Positions 917 to 44,567 of a DNA stretch of 64,000 bases are shown piece by piece. Made by a program: the position numbers and the translations under genes. The stretch covers positions 32,001 to 96,000 of the forward strand of contig JACQQD010000008.1 in NCBI GenBank assembly GCA_016207165.1, in the 5' to 3' direction. The DNA is from Candidatus Micrarchaeota archaeon (GTDB lineage Archaea > Micrarchaeota > Micrarchaeia > Norongarragalinales > Norongarragalinaceae). Positions within the stretch are counted from its first letter, which is position 1, and the number at the start of each line of letters is the position of its first letter. Below the pieces are notes generated by a model. The model saw only the letters and a program-made list of their open reading frames with translations. It was not told the origin of the DNA and searched no databases.

Positions 917-2500
917 ATGCATGCGTTGCTGACGCCGCGCCAAGCGGCGTTGTTGGAACTGGTCGACGCCCTGCAGCGCGATCCGCCGGAAAAACCCGAT
1001 GAACTGCTTTCCCTGAAAGCCGTGGTGGGCAAGCGTTATGGGTTGAAGGAAGTCATCCGCAACGCCGACATCCTGGACGCCCTTGGAAAGGACGCGTCCC
1101 CGGAACTTAAGTCGCTTCTTCGCACCCGGGCCGTTCGCTCGCTTTCCGGAGTGTCCGTGGTGGCGTTGATGATGCGTCCGGATTGGTGCCCGCACGGCAC
1201 CTGCGTGTATTGTCCTGGCGGCCCCAACACGAATTCGCCGAAAAGCTATACGGGCTTTGAGCCGGCCGCGCGCCGCGCCAAGCAGAATGACTTTGATTCC
1301 CATCGCCAAGTCCACACGCGCATCGCGCAACTGGAGGCCATTGGACATGACCCGCAGAAGTGCGAAGTGATTTTGATGGGGGGCACGTTCAACGCCCAGC
1401 CTCAAGACTACCAGGACGCGTTCGTGAAGGGCATGTACGAGTCCTTCAACCAAAAACCGGCGGGTTCGTGGCAAAAAGCCAAGGAACAGAATGCGTCGGC
1501 GCATTACCGCGTCATCGGCTTGACGTTTGAGACCAAGCCGGATTGGGCCACTCCGACGCACTTGGACGCGCTTTTGGAATACGGGGGCACGCGCGTTGAA
1601 CTGGGTATCCAGAGCTTGGATGAAGAAACCCTGGAGAAATCACACCGGGGCCACACCTTGAAGGACGGTTGGGAGGCGACGCAATACGCCAAGGACGCGT
1701 TTTTCAAGGTATGCCACCACGTCATGCCCGGCCTTTTTTCCACGCCAAAAAAGGATGTCGCCATGTTCAAGGAACTCTTTGAAGACCCGCGGTGGCGGCC
1801 GGACATGCTCAAGATTTACCCGTGCCTGGTCATTCCCGGAACCCAATTGTACGCGCTTTGGCGGCAGGGAAAATTCCAGCCGTTCACCGCGAAAGACGCC
1901 GCGGAGGCCATCGCGCGGGGTAAGGCGTTCGTGCCGGAGTACTGCCGCATCATGCGCGTGGACCGCGACATTCCGACGACCTTGATTGCCGCGGGAGTTG
2001 AGAAAAGCAATTTGCGCCAACTCGTGCACGACCGATGCACGGAGTTGGGCATCGCGTGCCGGTGCATCCGGTGCCGTGAGGCGGGCCTCAAGGCGAGGGA
2101 GGGGTTTTCGTTTGACTGGAGGGAGGTTCAACTCGTGCGCCGCGACTACCTGGCTTCGAAAGGCAAGGAAGTGTTTTTGAGTTTTGAAGCCGACGACGCG
2201 CTGCTTGGGTTCTTGCGCTTGCGTTTTCCGTTCCAACCGTGGCGTCCCGAAATCACGGAGGATGCCGCCGGGGTTCGGGAACTGCACGTGTACGGCGAAC
2301 AGTTGCCCCTGCACTTGAAGAAAAAGGACGCGGTGCAGCACCAGTCCCTTGGGAAACGCTTGCTGAGGGAGGCTGAACGCATCGCTTTCGAGGAATGGGG
2401 CTGCAAGAAATTGTTGGTCATTTCCGGTGTGGGCGTGCGGCAATACTACCAGAAACAAGGCTACTCGTTGGAAGGCGTGTACATGGCCAAAGCGTTATAG
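917..2500 (+). CDS. elp3: tRNA uridine(34) acetyltransferase Elp3 (radical SAM + GNAT)
   Basis: RSLSGV, CPHGTCVYCPGG, PKSYTGFEPA, RELHVYG, ISGVGVRQYY motifs. Confidence 0.97.
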   Translation: MHALLTPRQAALLELVDALQRDPPEKPDELLSLKAVVGKRYGLKEVIRNADILDALGKDASPELKSLLRTRAVRSLSGVSVVALMMRPDWCPHGTCVYCPGGPNTNSPKSYTGFEPAARRAKQNDFDSHRQVHTRIAQLEAIGHDPQKCEVILMGGTFNAQPQDYQDAFVKGMYESFNQKPAGSWQKAKEQNASAHYRVIGLTFETKPDWATPTHLDALLEYGGTRVELGIQSLDEETLEKSHRGHTLKDGWEATQYAKDAFFKVCHHVMPGLFSTPKKDVAMFKELFEDPRWRPDMLKIYPCLVIPGTQLYALWRQGKFQPFTAKDAAEAIARGKAFVPEYCRIMRVDRDIPTTLIAAGVEKSNLRQLVHDRCTELGIACRCIRCREAGLKAREGFSFDWREVQLVRRDYLASKGKEVFLSFEADDALLGFLRLRFPFQPWRPEITEDAAGVRELHVYGEQLPLHLKKKDAVQHQSLGKRLLREAERIAFEEWGCKKLLVISGVGVRQYYQKQGYSLEGVYMAKAL

Positions 2501-9711: not shown

Positions 9712-10619
9712 CTCCGTCGGAAAACCTCAAAGCCCAGTACGGCAAGCTCAAGCAGTATTATGCGGTGGCCGGTTTTCGCATGCCGTTTGAGCGCTTCGTG
9801 GCCCTTTTTTTCCTGATTTCGCTCTCCGTTTTCGTGGTTCTTTTGTTGCTCCGATTGAGCCTGGTCGTATCCGTGGTCGCGTTTTTGACGTTCATGAGTT
9901 TTGCCGTCTCCATTCCGTTGACCATCCGCAACAACCGCATCGACGCCATCGAAGCCAACCTGCCGGATGCACTCAAGCACATGGCTTTGGTGCTCAAGTC
10001 CGGGGGCACCACTGAGGCCGCGTTGCAGGAAGTCGCGCAAGCCGAGTACGGGCCCGTGAGCGACGACCTCAAAACGTCGCTGGTGCAGTTGCAGGAGGGC
10101 AAATCTTTTGAGGAAGTCTTGGAGGAGGCGGCCAAAAAATCCGGTTCGCTTCTCTTCCAGCGAACGGTCCGAATCGTTTTGGACGCCAAGCGCGCCGGCG
10201 GGGGTTTGGCTGACGTCATGTACAGCATCGCCGAAGACGCCCGCGACCTGCTTCACATCAAGCGGGAACGACGCAGCCGCACCACCATGCACGTGTTGTT
10301 CTTGTTTGTTTCTGGCGTCATATTGGCCCCCTTTATTTTCGGTTTTTCCGTGTCCATCGTCCACTACATCAATACGGGTATTTCGTCCGCGCTTCCCAAC
10401 TCGAAAGCGTCGGGTCTCTGCGATTTGAACAGCGTCTTGACGCTGTTCTTGATGGCCCAGACGCTCATTGCCGCCCTGGCTATCGGCTTGATTCGCGAAG
10501 GGCGGTTCACGAAGTATCTCCTGTACGCGCCGGTCATGGTTTTGGCCGCCCTTATTATATTCGAGGCCGGTAAGTTTGTAAGCGCCCTCATCGTGGGCGG
10601 CGCCGTGATTGCATGCTGA
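9705..10619 (+). CDS. Second TadC / T2SS-F family membrane protein
   Basis: IEANLPDALKHM..SG, YGPVS, GGGLAD motifs. Confidence 0.9.
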   Translation: MVTPSENLKAQYGKLKQYYAVAGFRMPFERFVALFFLISLSVFVVLLLLRLSLVVSVVAFLTFMSFAVSIPLTIRNNRIDAIEANLPDALKHMALVLKSGGTTEAALQEVAQAEYGPVSDDLKTSLVQLQEGKSFEEVLEEAAKKSGSLLFQRTVRIVLDAKRAGGGLADVMYSIAEDARDLLHIKRERRSRTTMHVLFLFVSGVILAPFIFGFSVSIVHYINTGISSALPNSKASGLCDLNSVLTLFLMAQTLIAALAIGLIREGRFTKYLLYAPVMVLAALIIFEAGKFVSALIVGGAVIAC

Positions 10620-10741
10620 AAAAAGCCTTCCGTTCAATCCGCGGACAAACGGCGATTGAATACGTCATGATGATTAGTGCCACCGTCATGTTCATTTCAC
10701 TCGTCGCTTTTTTCATCAAGACTCGAGTGATTGCGCCGTGA
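10613..10741 (+). CDS. 42-aa class III signal-peptide micro-pilin (absent from ORF track)
   Basis: MLKKAFRSIRG|QTAIEYVMMISATVMFISLVAFFIKTRVIAP; overlaps both neighbours. Confidence 0.85.
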   Translation: MLKKAFRSIRGQTAIEYVMMISATVMFISLVAFFIKTRVIAP

Positions 10742-10974
10742 GTTCACCGCTTCGCTCCCAGACGTCCATTGAGTACGTCATGATTTTGGGCGGCGTTTTG
10801 CTGATCGTGTCGTTGTTTGCGTATTTTCTCCTCAACACGGTCTACGCGCCGCAGACGGCCGACTTGGAGAATAAATCCAAGGAGTACAAAGACCTCAAAG
10901 GGCAACTCAACGACCAATTGGGCGACTTGGACGGTTCTGAGCAACCCGGCCCGTCGCCGTCGCCGGCTGGATGA
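10738..10974 (+). CDS. Class III signal-peptide pilin
   Basis: RS|QTSIEYVMILGGVLLIV. Confidence 0.85.
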   Translation: MSSPLRSQTSIEYVMILGGVLLIVSLFAYFLLNTVYAPQTADLENKSKEYKDLKGQLNDQLGDLDGSEQPGPSPSPAG

Positions 10975-11037
10975 CAAAGGTTTTTAAACCCCGTTCCGTT
11001 AGGCTTTCAATTGAATCTCACAAGGGGGTTTTTCAGG

Positions 11038-11367
11038 ATGAAGCGGGGTCAAGGAACCTTTGAGTACGTGTTGCTTTTGGGCGGCGTTTTGTTGATCGTG
11101 GTTTTGGCTATCGTTGTTTTGCAGCAGACGGCGCAACAGGGCTTCCAGGGCGCGGGCCAGCAACAGTGTACGGCGCGCTTGTTGACGGACATTTCCTGTC
11201 GCAACGCGCAAGGCAACTTTAACAGTTGTGGCGTCGTGACGGCCTCCACGTATCAGGGTTGCCAATTCCAGGCAGGCACGTTTACCACGGCCGCGCCGAC
11301 GGGTTGCACCAACACCATTGACGCCGCCACGCAGCGGTACTGCGGCCGCGCGCCGATTGGTCCGTAA
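11038..11367 (+). CDS. Probable major pilin 1 (6 Cys head)
   Basis: MKRG|QGTFEYVLLLGGVLLIVV; own TTTTTAAA box at ~10980 and T-rich terminator. Confidence 0.88.
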   Translation: MKRGQGTFEYVLLLGGVLLIVVLAIVVLQQTAQQGFQGAGQQQCTARLLTDISCRNAQGNFNSCGVVTASTYQGCQFQAGTFTTAAPTGCTNTIDAATQRYCGRAPIGP

Positions 11368-11372
11368 AACGG

Positions 11373-11433
11373 TTTTTTTTCCCCGTTTTCCTTTTTTTCT
11401 TTTCGTATTCCTTTTTTTTCGTTCCTCTTTTTT
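11373..11433 (+). terminator. Oligo-T terminator after pilin 1
   Basis: Several consecutive T-runs directly after the stop codon. Confidence 0.65.
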
Positions 11434-11470
11434 CCTAAAGGCTTAAATTTTGTGGTTGTTTGGCTGGTTC

Positions 11471-11806
11471 ATGCGTTTGCGGCGGGGTCAAGGAACCTTT
11501 GAGTACGTGTTGCTTTTGGGCGGCGTTTTGTTGATCGTGGTTTTGGCTATCGTTGTTTTGCAGCAGACGGCTCAAGAAAGTTTTCGGGACGCCGGCTCCA
11601 AGCAGTGCGCGGCGCGCTTGCTCACGGATTTAGAGTGCCACGATGCCGACGGTTCTTGGAATGCGTGCGAGGACGTGGATGCATCGCGGTATGCGGGGTG
11701 CGTGTTTGGGTCGGAGACGTTTACCGCCGTGAGTCCGAGGGCGGGTTGCGAGGCGTTGGATGACCCCTTGACGGAGCGGTACTGCGGCAAGCCCCCGGTG
11801 TCGTAA
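11471..11806 (+). CDS. Pilin 2, paralog of pilin 1
   Basis: RRG|QGTFEYVLLLGG; 90 bp identical to pilin 1; same six Cys. Confidence 0.88.
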   Translation: MRLRRGQGTFEYVLLLGGVLLIVVLAIVVLQQTAQESFRDAGSKQCAARLLTDLECHDADGSWNACEDVDASRYAGCVFGSETFTAVSPRAGCEALDDPLTERYCGKPPVS

Positions 11807-11852
11807 GGGCTTTTGGTAAATGCTTTTTAACGAGGGTCACGTCGTGTCTTTC

Positions 11853-12029
11853 ATGCGGAATAAAGTTCGGGCCCAAGCCGCCATTGAATACATTTTACTG
11901 GTTTCGTTTGGCTTGTTCGTCGTCATCGTCGGCTTCACGTTGGCTTTTTACGTGAAGAGCTTCACGGATTCCGCGTTGGCCTTGGTCGCGGAGAACCGGG
12001 ATGCCATGCTGGGCTTTTTGTTGCGTTGA
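11853..12029 (+). CDS. Short class III signal-peptide pilin
   Basis: MRNKVRA|QAAIEYILLVSFG. Confidence 0.85.
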   Translation: MRNKVRAQAAIEYILLVSFGLFVVIVGFTLAFYVKSFTDSALALVAENRDAMLGFLLR

Positions 12030-12132
12030 TTTGATTCGCGTTAGCCGGGGGTTCGGGGGAACCTGGGACTATAGGGGGCGGAGCCCCCTGTGGTCCGGGC
12101 GTGAGAACCGGGATGCCATGCTGGGCTTTTTG
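12030..12132 (+). mobile_element. ~73-bp hairpin element (family B) plus duplicated pilin 3' end
   Basis: 11991-12020 repeated exactly at 12103-12132; intervening DNA carries GGACTATAGGGGGC-GGA-GCCCCCTGTGGTCC; homologous to 44138-44206. Mobility is inferred. Confidence 0.65.
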
Positions 12133-12181
12133 CTTCGGTAGACGGAAATCCTTTTCTGTCCGTGTATCCTTTTTTCTCTGC

Positions 12182-31675: not shown

Positions 31676-32092
31676 TTACTCTTCGGGAACGTGTTCTTTT
31701 TCCCACCATTTCTGTACTTCTTTCAAGGTTTGGTTGGCAGGGTGTTCTTCTTGAAGGGCGACGAGGCGGTAGTTGCCGTTTCCGTCGTGCTGGATGGTGA
31801 CTCCGGTTAAATCTGTTTTCAAGCCGTTGTGTCCGTTGGAGGCCAGCAAAACATTCCGTATGTTCTCTTCTTTTCCCGGCGTTCCTTTCAAGTGAAAAAC
31901 CACTTTTCGAATCCTTCCAACGCGGACCCCCTTTTCAGGGTCAAGAGCGCCCTTTGCTTTCGAGAAGTAGTCTTTGGCTGACGCTCCCACTTCTCCAACG
32001 GTTCTCCAGCGACCCCCACGGATTGGATTGGATGGCGTGAAACCGCCGTGGCCCATCAATGCCTTCAACGTGGTTCGGATGTGTTCAGACAT
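31676..32092 (-). CDS. Hypothetical basic protein
   Basis: 138-aa ORF, GAGGG SD-like upstream, lower GC; no motif. Confidence 0.6.
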   Translation of the reverse strand: MSEHIRTTLKALMGHGGFTPSNPIRGGRWRTVGEVGASAKDYFSKAKGALDPEKGVRVGRIRKVVFHLKGTPGKEENIRNVLLASNGHNGLKTDLTGVTIQHDGNGNYRLVALQEEHPANQTLKEVQKWWEKEHVPEE

Positions 32093-43906: not shown

Positions 43907-44110
43907 GTGGCGGAAAAACCAAGGAGTCGACGCGGGCAATCGCATGGCACCATGGCGGTGGCGGTCATGGTTTTGTTGGTGCCCGTGGTGCCGGTGGCGT
44001 ACTGGTTCACGGATCATCTCGCCCCCGTGTTTAACTGGTTTGAGGGCCCCCAGATTCTCGCGGCCACCGCCGTTTTGGCGTGGATGTTTTTCCAGAAGTT
44101 CCACTATTAA
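43907..44110 (+). CDS. Small two-TM protein, possible class III-like leader
   Basis: RRG|Q followed by hydrophobic stretch, but lacks E+5. Confidence 0.5.
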   Translation: MAEKPRSRRGQSHGTMAVAVMVLLVPVVPVAYWFTDHLAPVFNWFEGPQILAATAVLAWMFFQKFHY

Positions 44111-44206
44111 AAAGAGCGCCCGAGGTCAGGACTCGAAGGTCGCCCCAGGGGGCTCCGCCCCCTTGGCCCGACCTAGGCCTCGACCCCCGACTAGCTTTTT
44201 GAATCG
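44110..44206 (-). mobile_element. 69-bp hairpin element (family B) plus duplicated tRNA 3' end
   Basis: 44207-44233 repeated at 44110-44137 (1-nt insertion); same AGGGGGCGGAGCCCCCTG core as at 12073. Mobility is inferred. Confidence 0.65.
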
Positions 44207-44213
44207 AAAAGAG

Positions 44214-44338
44214 CGCCCGAGGTCGGACTCGAACCGACGGCCTGCTGATTTCTGTGGATTCAATGAGTTTGCCGACGACCCAAAGTCGGCGGTTACGCTC
44301 TTAACAGTCAGCCGCTCTACCTGCTGAGCTACCCGGGC
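44214..44338 (-). tRNA. tRNA-Asn(GUU) with 52-nt intron at 37/38 (44250-44301); CCA not encoded
   Basis: GCCCGGG/CUCGGGC acceptor, UAGCUCAG D-arm, GCUGA-CU-GUU-A/A-UCAGC anticodon arm, GUUCGAGUC T-loop; 73 nt after splicing. Confidence 0.95.
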
Positions 44339-44519: not shown

Positions 44520-44557
44520 AAAAGAAAAAGAAAGAGGAAAAAGGGGGCTGCGCCCCC
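44520..44557 (-). terminator. Hairpin + T-tract terminator
   Basis: GGGGGC-GCA-GCCCCC-TTTTTCCTCTTT on minus strand just after the operon's last stop. Confidence 0.75.
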
Positions 44558-44567
44558 AACGACGCGC

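Follow-up and report, generated by a model that had tools for sequence, protein, structure and literature searches.

A miniature hairpin element between duplicated gene ends in a Micrarchaeota genome: candidate copies of a cargo-less integrative cassette family

Elements moved by tyrosine integrases are bounded by attL and attR sites that lie in the ends of tRNA or protein-coding genes, and some of them restore the 3' or 5' end of the gene that they enter. Such gene-end restoration has until now been known from viruses, plasmids and islands of kilobase size. Cis-mobilizable elements (CIMEs) are also flanked by att sites and carry no recombination genes; they are decayed ICEs, kilobases in length, and reside at the single att site of their parent. 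Integron gene cassettes form a system of attC hairpins, an attI platform and the IntI integrase. Among short non-coding repeats, MITEs possess two terminal inverted repeats and generate short duplications of fixed length, and REPs make no duplication. Mobile elements are poorly known in the DPANN-type archaea, where there is a premium on intact tRNAs and short operons. The cases in which an integrase att site falls in a tRNA gene are summarised in PMC2853133. We describe here a family of hairpin-forming inserts in a Candidatus Micrarchaeota genome that are flanked by duplicated gene ends, and we suggest that they may belong with the att-flanked elements.

The window, by which we mean the whole 64,000-nt stretch of DNA analysed (positions 32,001 to 96,000 of contig JACQQD010000008.1), carries a copy behind a tRNA-Asn(GTT) gene, here termed site 2. 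The intact gene occupies 44214..44338 on the minus strand and is recognised by Rfam RF00005 with 57.2 bits (gathering score 29). Its anticodon loop holds an intron of 52-53 nt, because of which ARAGORN in default mode reports no tRNA in the window; the program calls Asn(GTT) once 52 nt are removed at the canonical position 37/38, and its intron mode mislabels several tRNAs, site 2 being called Ser(aga). Along the minus strand, the proximal repeat (TTCGAGTCCGACCTCGGGCGCTCTTTT; 44207..44233) extends from the T-loop to the tRNA 3' end and a CTCTTTT trailer, and is continuous with the gene. It is followed by a left arm at 44178..44206 with a CGATTC..TAGTCGGGGGTCGAGG motif, supported by alignment to the family profile (model positions 1-64), and by a long hairpin at 44138..44173 (GGTCG..GGGGGC-GGA-GCCCCC..CGACC), established by folding and by covariation across 49 copies. 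The distal repeat (TTCGAGTCCTGACCTCGGGCGCTCTTTT; 44110..44137), a redundant tRNA 3' part, adjoins both the hairpin and the stop codon of a convergent 67-aa ORF; gatC-like and gatA-like genes lie downstream. The two repeats agree at 27 of 28 positions, the sole difference being a T inserted in the distal one, and the insert between them measures 69 nt (44206 to 44138, minus strand). An earlier note, made from the letters alone, had described this duplicated tRNA end, the 69-nt insert and the motifs within it, and all are present at 44110-44233 on the minus strand.

The exact part of the site 2 repeat alone scores 18. When the identical repeat finder was run at 400 random positions of the genome, the mean score was 8.6 and 399 positions scored 14 or less. 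A profile built from eight other copies, leaving out site 2 and its closest relative, recovers site 2 in the window with E = 8.2e-7, and the covariance model introduced below (R1) matches 44135-44206 with 60.7 bits. Because the leave-out alignment spans the left motif as well as the hairpin (model positions 1-64), the likeness between sites is not a matter of the GC hairpin only, a concern that the earlier note had raised about its own proposal. In contigs assembled from three runs of one study, one of which may be the source sample, site 2 is filled and shows no difference; among the joints and loose ends listed for Logan contigs of four runs, again from one study, none skips the element or ends at its borders, with the proviso that contigs cannot show rare forms.

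The second copy in the window, site 1, had been taken for another tRNA end, and here the earlier note must be corrected, since the duplicated segment is the 3' end of a protein gene, a 69-aa ORF at 11820-12029 on the plus strand. The proximal repeat (11991..12029, plus strand) consists of the last 12 codons and the stop (ENRDAMLGFLLR); the element follows at 12030..12102 on the same strand, with a TTTGATTCGC..CCGGGGGTTCGGGG left arm and a hairpin at 12066-12096, as judged by the R1 match (84.6 bits) and the fold. The distal repeat (12103..12141, plus strand) is identical for 30 nt and then reads CTT CGG TAG where the proximal copy reads TTG CGT TGA, such that both encode the same peptide and a stop despite codon changes in the last three codons. 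The 69-aa ORF has no Pfam match; read by eye, it has an N-terminus resembling a class III (pilin-type) signal peptide.

Both sites are members of a genome-wide family, which the earlier note, confined to the window, did not see. The source genome (G000; 1.27 Mb in 12 contigs, about 90% complete) was searched by a whole-genome motif scan, then with nhmmer, and then with R1, built from 11 copies. R1 yields 25 matches at E<=1 in G000, of which 18 are flanked by direct repeats scoring at least 18 and seven have no clear repeat; the relatives show a similar picture. Matches occur in 13 of the 41 genomes searched including G000, that is, in 12 of 40 related genomes, with 10 and 12 matches in two congeners (G001 and G002) and nine and six in genomes of two other genera. 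At E<=1e-4, matches are present in 7 of the 26 genomes of the taxonomic family, and beyond the family R1 gives weak single matches. A pattern scan of a species-genome collection returned 83 stretches; among the 80 listed, nine are R1-positive, all of them titled Candidatus Micrarchaeota archaeon, and the other 71, with titles mostly of GC-rich bacteria, are R1-negative and were set aside as chance. Viral contigs in IMG/VR gave no match to an exact 31-mer and two to a degenerate pattern, both R1-negative. In Rfam, the element stays below the gathering score (best 26 bits where 45 are needed for site 1, at most 12 bits for site 2), and no description of it was found in the literature searched, supplementary files being outside that scope.

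The element is about 60-80 nt long, and the insert between repeats about 60-120 nt, too short for an ORF to fit; the absence of cargo remarked upon in the earlier note holds. The order of parts is gene body, first copy of the gene end, variable left arm closing with a GTCGGGGGTTCGGGG-like motif, long GC hairpin, second copy of the gene end, and the old downstream DNA. The left arm often begins TTTGATTCGC and always includes a G-run motif, e.g. GTCGGGGGTTCGGGG or CCGGGGGTCGAGG; the hairpin starts some 7 nt beyond this motif, spans about 31-36 nt and is usually topped by GGGGGC-GGA-GCCCCC. The ends of the element are not inverted repeats of each other. A copy reduced to the left arm lies behind tRNA-Gln at C6:13894-13925, and a duplicate of the tRNA-Gln end was looked for behind it and not found. 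At its right end (..GGTCCGGG TTC or ..GGCGACC) the element is similar to the sequence immediately 5' of a tRNA T-loop, which hints that the ancestral target may have been a tRNA gene.

As had been noticed from the two sites in the window, basal stems differ in sequence between copies and still pair in the fold, and subfamilies can be told apart by them (GGAC/GTCC, GGTCG/CGACC, GACCA/TGGTC, CTAAGC/GCTTAG). Covariation was assessed on 49 copies from 13 genomes (G000 and 12 relatives) aligned to R1, with the caveat that an alignment fitted to the model somewhat favours structure. In this set, standard pairs fill 96.7% of cells compared with 86.4% in shuffles, and double-sided changes occupy 56 cells compared with 15.7, a number attained in 0 of 500 shuffles; when the partner is slid by 1-3 columns, pairing falls to 36-70%. 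An independent MAFFT/RNAalifold analysis of 11 copies finds compensatory changes in five of ten pairs. The element folds better on its plus-sense strand than on the complement, and one hairpin pair is U.G in 35 of 47 copies, from which we infer that the hairpin matters as a single-stranded nucleic acid of that strand.

The targets are more varied than the window would have suggested, and the protein-gene ends among them had escaped the earlier note. We count 18 target loci in G000, i.e. 17 independent repeat-bearing loci and a tRNA-Leu locus whose repeat has diverged (score 10). Eight are tRNA 3' ends (Ala twice, Pro, Arg three times, Asn and Leu), six are protein 3' ends (C5:2783, site 1, C9:68425, C11:53716, C9:97915 and C10:5605), and four are 5' ends of genes on the opposite strand, comprising ribosome-binding site, start and first codons (C1:124308, C6:128389, C11:80504 and probably C12:63336). 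At all 18 loci, the intact gene runs on from the copy on the left-arm side and the redundant copy adjoins the hairpin; orientation relative to the gene body is fixed at all 18 repeat-bearing matches of G000, such that the constant orientation and architecture proposed from two sites now have the support of a family. The second copy begins 8-14 nt past the hairpin top, while the first ends 33-92 nt before it, so that one junction is tight and the other ragged. Repeat length varies from 10 to 81 nt. For tRNA targets, the repeat starts in all inspected cases (G000 and two congeners) at the T-loop or at the 5' strand of the T-stem, which bears out the likeness to integrase att sites drawn by the earlier note, and several distal tRNA copies, site 2 included, show indels of 1-2 nt in the T-loop. 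G000 also has tRNAs with T-loop introns. Reverse copies head to head with a forward copy are found at tRNA-Arg(tct), tRNA-Leu(cag), tRNA-Trp and the G002 locus L041. In a few reverse copies the hairpin adjoins a gene 3' terminus and there is no repeat of their own; reverse-oriented copies may represent primary insertions or donor flank that was carried along.

Where the target encodes protein, both copies can be read as codons, and their differences, also unremarked before, are informative. Reading frames were set by codon-usage score and inspection, given that taking the longest ORF led to the wrong frame at 8 of 19 loci; the tally leaves out three loci, C12:63336 and L021 because their frame is uncertain and L035 because it has no coding frame. 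At nine protein loci of G000, 36 of 39 changed codons are synonymous, compared with a random mean of 18% and a maximum of 41% in 5000 simulations; over 16 loci including relatives the figures are 53 of 71, with 17% expected and a maximum of 33%. At C10:5605, 27 codons (DVNLPMHARTLVWNLLSELEALKNRA and stop) are repeated and 17 differ, all synonymously, including AGC/TCT and the stops TGA/TAG. At C11:80504 the repeat covers the first 16 codons of a gene, four of which are changed synonymously, CGC/AGA among them. Identical repeats also exist (41/41 and 38/38 in G000; 49/49, 36/36, 25/25 and 23/23 in relatives). Differences that are synonymous only are not those of a redundant, unselected copy left by a fresh target duplication, and the tally shows that the two copies have had separate histories as coding sequence.

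The pyrD gene of G002 shows in addition which copy is the newcomer. The copy continuous with the gene ends EMKDWMKKEGFSSPKDLVGLAHGQ and stop; the copy behind the hairpin reads EVKAWMNKEGFSKPSELVGLAHEA and stop in the same frame, runs on into pyrK, and shares its ending with the uninterrupted pyrD of G000 (..MVGLAHEA and stop), where the site is empty. Nucleotide identity between the two G002 copies is only about 65%, and their identical runs reach only about 10 nt, while the intervening element shares about 95% identity with the C5:2783 copy of G000, at a different gene. From this divergence, the match to G000 and the near-identity of the element, it follows that the distal copy is native and that the proximal copy arrived with the element. 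An imported copy excludes a simple target-site duplication, unless later allelic exchange is added to it.

Other orthologous loci are likewise filled in one genome and empty in another. The tRNA-Asn loci of G001 and G002 that correspond to site 2 have neither element nor duplicate, with gatC within about 70-125 nt. The rpl23|rpl2 junction is empty in G000 and filled in G001, where the repeat is only 10 nt and consists of the stop of one gene and the start of the next. The gene end reading ..KINAQDFLP and stop carries a reverse and forward pair in G002 and nothing in G000; an independent metagenome contig has a single forward copy there, with repeats that differ by five synonymous codons and one D/E at the junction. 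tRNA-Ala(cgc) is filled in both G000 and G001, by different subfamilies. Occupancy that differs in this manner implies that sites are gained, lost or re-used. The earlier note had offered a minimal integrative element as one of two readings, and imported gene ends and empty orthologous sites fit it.

We lean towards the interpretation that site 2 belongs to a family of cargo-less integrative gene-end cassettes that insert by a single crossover beside the hairpin. The mobile form would be a small molecule composed of a gene-end fragment, the left arm and the hairpin, the last being read on the element's own strand. Insertion would proceed by one crossover of the Campbell type, next to the hairpin and at the fragment's inner edge, which for tRNAs would place it within the T-loop; the target gene would stay intact and its old end would be pushed downstream. 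The crossover would be site-specific and catalysed in trans, most plausibly by a tyrosine recombinase. New targets could be acquired through aberrant excision between the hairpin-side site and a look-alike in an upstream gene, taking that gene's end along. A Campbell-type crossover would explain the intact target, the displaced native end, the fixed orientation and the tight hairpin junction, as well as the T-loop boundary, the empty orthologous sites and the synonymous or homologous differences between copies, which would reflect the divergence of donor and recipient. Since copies will differ wherever donor and host differ, whatever the crossover point, these differences cannot place the crossover, and a crossover driven by homology is also compatible with them; the constant T-loop boundary, the tight junction and the low identity at pyrD lead us to favour a site-specific step. 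Several observations count against this cassette reading. It would be unusual for a single classical tyrosine recombinase to act on more than 20 different target sequences, and a circle of some 100-150 bp is a very small substrate for recombination between double strands. Neither an excised circle nor an empty allele was seen in the run contigs, 7 of 25 matches have no clear repeat and some reverse copies have no repeat of their own, and no recombinase is linked to the element (14 integrase loci, 1.5 kb). More tentatively, and with rather low confidence, we propose that this is a new kind of mobile element in which a hairpin module captures the end of an upstream gene (a tRNA from the T-loop on, or C- or N-terminal codons), re-inserts in the same gene of other cells and swaps gene ends between lineages, the captured fragment rather than protein-DNA recognition setting the target.

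The same architecture could have come about by transposition with a long target-site duplication of variable length (10-80 nt), the copies having diverged later through allelic recombination with other strains. This is an unlikely but by no means negligible account, and the identical repeats at several loci and the wide variation in repeat length speak for it, as does the precedent of insertion with long target duplication in print for bacterial restriction-modification genes, as described in PMC2853133. Yet the G002 pyrD copies remain coding at about 65% identity next to an element about 95% identical to a copy elsewhere; the left boundary is ragged (33-92 nt), where a transposon would have two exact ends; tRNA repeats start at the T-loop in the inspected cases; orientation is the same at all 18 repeat-bearing matches; and the transposase classes searched gave no match. 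It is rather improbable that the element acts at the RNA level, whether as a small RNA, as a terminator or structured 3'-UTR, or as part of an intron-like insert that is removed along with the first copy, both copies being expressed and selected. Such a role would suit the preservation of frame, residues and stop codons in both copies, the better folding of one strand with its frequent U.G pair, and the existence of T-loop-intron tRNAs in G000; however, the folding strand is antisense to the gene at 5'-end targets, several distal tRNA copies including that of site 2 have the T-loop indels noted above, no Rfam family matches the element, and presence or absence between species together with an imported copy needs an event at the DNA level in any case.

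The other reading offered by the earlier note, a shared relic end of a virus or plasmid family, fares worse, and we consider it very improbable that the copies are decayed ends of larger integrated viruses or plasmids from which the cargo was deleted. Although the geometry of the duplication equals that of attL and attR, and G000 has three integrase genes, the same tight junction of left arm and hairpin recurs at all inspected loci in several genera, the two parts lying side by side with inserts of at most a few tens of nucleotides, a pattern that separate deletions would not produce again and again; versions with cargo were looked for and not found, IMG/VR yielded no viral contig with the element, and none of 14 integrase loci has a copy within 1.5 kb. 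The integrative part of that note's interpretation is supported and its virus or plasmid part is not. We give practically no credence to chance similarity or an assembly artefact: the site 2 repeat is indeed short, but the repeat scores at random positions and the leave-out match speak against chance, and the same structure is present in independent assemblies and in the contigs of three runs.

As regards the enzyme, six mobile-element enzyme families were searched for in G000, and only tyrosine recombinases turned up. Three genes (PF00589) are present, two of them paralogues with a C-terminal zinc ribbon, at C3:309-1529 and C5:32432-33631, and the ORFs flanking these two are not homologous to each other. 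Family searches in G000, which is about 90% complete, gave no match for TnpB, reverse transcriptase, IS110, Cas1 or Y1 HUH, and the enzyme gene may be absent from an assembly of that completeness. R1 has no match within 1.5 kb of 14 integrase loci, and the surroundings of integrases on contigs C3 and C5 of G000 and in 58.6 kb of three relatives show no repeats of at least 18 nt and no copies except the known one on C5, 30 kb away. Of the 7 genomes with strong element matches, 6 have a homologue of the zinc-ribbon integrase, as do 6 of the 33 others, a co-occurrence that is suggestive at best, as related genomes are not independent. IMG/VR, searched by integrase protein and alignment, yielded no relative.

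Should the proposal be correct, integration with restoration of a gene end would be reducible to about 70 nt plus a gene fragment, and such units would have spread to some twenty essential gene ends in a DPANN-type genome of 1.3 Mb. The family would offer a measurable route by which lineages exchange C- and N-terminal codons and tRNA 3' parts, and a system defined by sequence in which to seek a recombinase that acts on a structured single-strand site. It would also be a testable source of odd tRNA gene structures, in that fragment-guided cassettes could feed T-loop introns and split tRNA genes in small archaea. For annotation, tRNA pseudo-ends and short false ORFs are to be expected at family sites.

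Three classes of element were considered and rejected. A DDE-type transposon or MITE is at odds with repeats that vary from 10 to 81 nt, a ragged left end and the lack of terminal inverted repeats; IS200/IS605 or REP/RAYT elements are at odds with the duplications, and PF01797 and PF07282 (Y1/TnpB-type) are unmatched in the about 90% complete G000; and for a SINE-like retroelement, PF00078 (reverse transcriptase) is unmatched in the same assembly and the copies are not self-identical. With MITEs and REP repeats the family nonetheless shares that it is short, non-coding, hairpin-forming, multi-copy and mostly intergenic; unlike them, it brings a copy of the neighbouring gene's end. The inserts with long target duplications described in PMC2853133 resemble it in their long and variable repeats, which often overlap gene 3' ends, and in having no recognisable mobility gene. 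Those inserts, however, are kilobase restriction-modification genes in bacteria, between near-identical repeats, whereas the insert here is a conserved 70-nt module and its repeats can be diverged homologues.

The likeness to integron cassettes lies in the order of payload and imperfect hairpin, with a crossover that would fall at the 3' foot of the hairpin, and in a strand-specific structure that is more conserved than its sequence; an attC-like hairpin is present at the cassette's 3' end, as judged by structure alone. In contrast to integron cassettes, the payload is a replacement gene end that matches the target, insertion duplicates, and the inserts lie in many chromosomal genes rather than at an attI platform. 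No ORF-cassette array was seen around the inspected copies, and an IntI-type integrase was not identified in a search for PF00589 in general. Like CIMEs, the family has att-like flanking repeats and no recombinase of its own, and a partner, acting in trans or in cis, is presumed to move it; unlike CIMEs, with their kilobases and single att site, its elements are miniature and lie at many sites. The closest correspondence is with the attL and attR of tyrosine-integrase elements: direct repeats of a gene end flank the insert, those of tRNAs start from the T-loop, the gene is restored by a diverged copy that the element brings, and empty orthologous sites exist. The differences from these elements are that the family insert is only about 60-120 nt, with no integrase or any other gene, and that a single conserved module occupies more than 20 unrelated targets in a genome of 1.27 Mb. 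We therefore file the family with the integrative, att-flanked elements, minus the linked recombinase, as a member of that group whose miniature, cargo-less size and many targets per module are unusual.

At the end of a tRNA-Leu gene in the congener G002, the cargo-less hairpin cassette occurs in a tandem array (locus L015 on contig C30, ~1440-1600, minus strand), in which the tRNA end is followed by a full element and then by a second, exact tRNA end with 26 nt of left arm, the latter two making up a 49-nt repeat. Next comes a remnant that lacks the hairpin, and the array closes with a diverged tRNA end, the third in all; the arrangement looks like the product of successive insertions at one site. 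Within the genome under study, two B-type copies (locus L006, contig C8:6293-6405, and contig C1:~179560-179700) share an extra hairpin of ~45 nt, GCGATGTTGCCACGGGCAACATCGC-like, between left arm and main hairpin, which marks them as members of a longer subfamily or else is a small insert nested in the element. A further B-type copy, 3' of tRNA-Gln (locus L012, contig C6:13894-13925, minus strand), consists of the left arm alone; it carries neither the hairpin nor a duplicate of the tRNA end, so that either the copy has been truncated or the element is in another state here.

In the window, the gap between the distal tRNA-Asn copy and gatC is filled by a hydrophobic 67-aa ORF (43907-44110, plus strand), for which Pfam returned no match. 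The corresponding tRNA-to-gatC spacer in the congeners G001 and G002 is only ~70-125 nt long and holds no counterpart of this ORF. About 200 nt upstream of tRNA-Asn lies another GC hairpin, GGGGGCTGCGCCCCC (44541-44559), whose likeness to the element is limited to the top of the latter's hairpin (nhmmer E = 3.4), and which is probably an unrelated stem. The site 1 element, for its part, is directly preceded by the last of a row of small plus-strand ORFs (window 10613-12029), among them the close paralogues 11011-11367 and 11450-11806. The row has hydrophobic N-terminal stretches in common (QTAIEYV.., QGTFEYVLLLGGVLLIVVLAIV) that, by inspection, resemble signal peptides of class III (pilin type).

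Elsewhere in the genome under study, a third tyrosine recombinase gene (contig C1:152884-154400) ends ~220 nt past tRNA-Met(cat); a genome-wide search found no second copy of this tRNA end. The integrase on contig C5 adjoins a minus-strand gene (C5:31419-32288; positions 203-1072 of locus L051) whose 289-aa product contains a DUF488 domain and, at its N-terminus, weakly matches SocA/Panacea antitoxin-like sequences; this gene may be part of an integrated element.

Outside the window, a pair of tRNA genes on contig C6 with Leu-like and Ser-like 3' ends (~120690-120795 and ~117900-117985) each seem to have their T-loop interrupted by an intron of ~50-57 nt (TTC|intron|AAATC); ARAGORN called neither gene. 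The T-loop, which is the break point in tRNAs for the hairpin cassettes, is likewise the break point for the apparent introns of these two genes.
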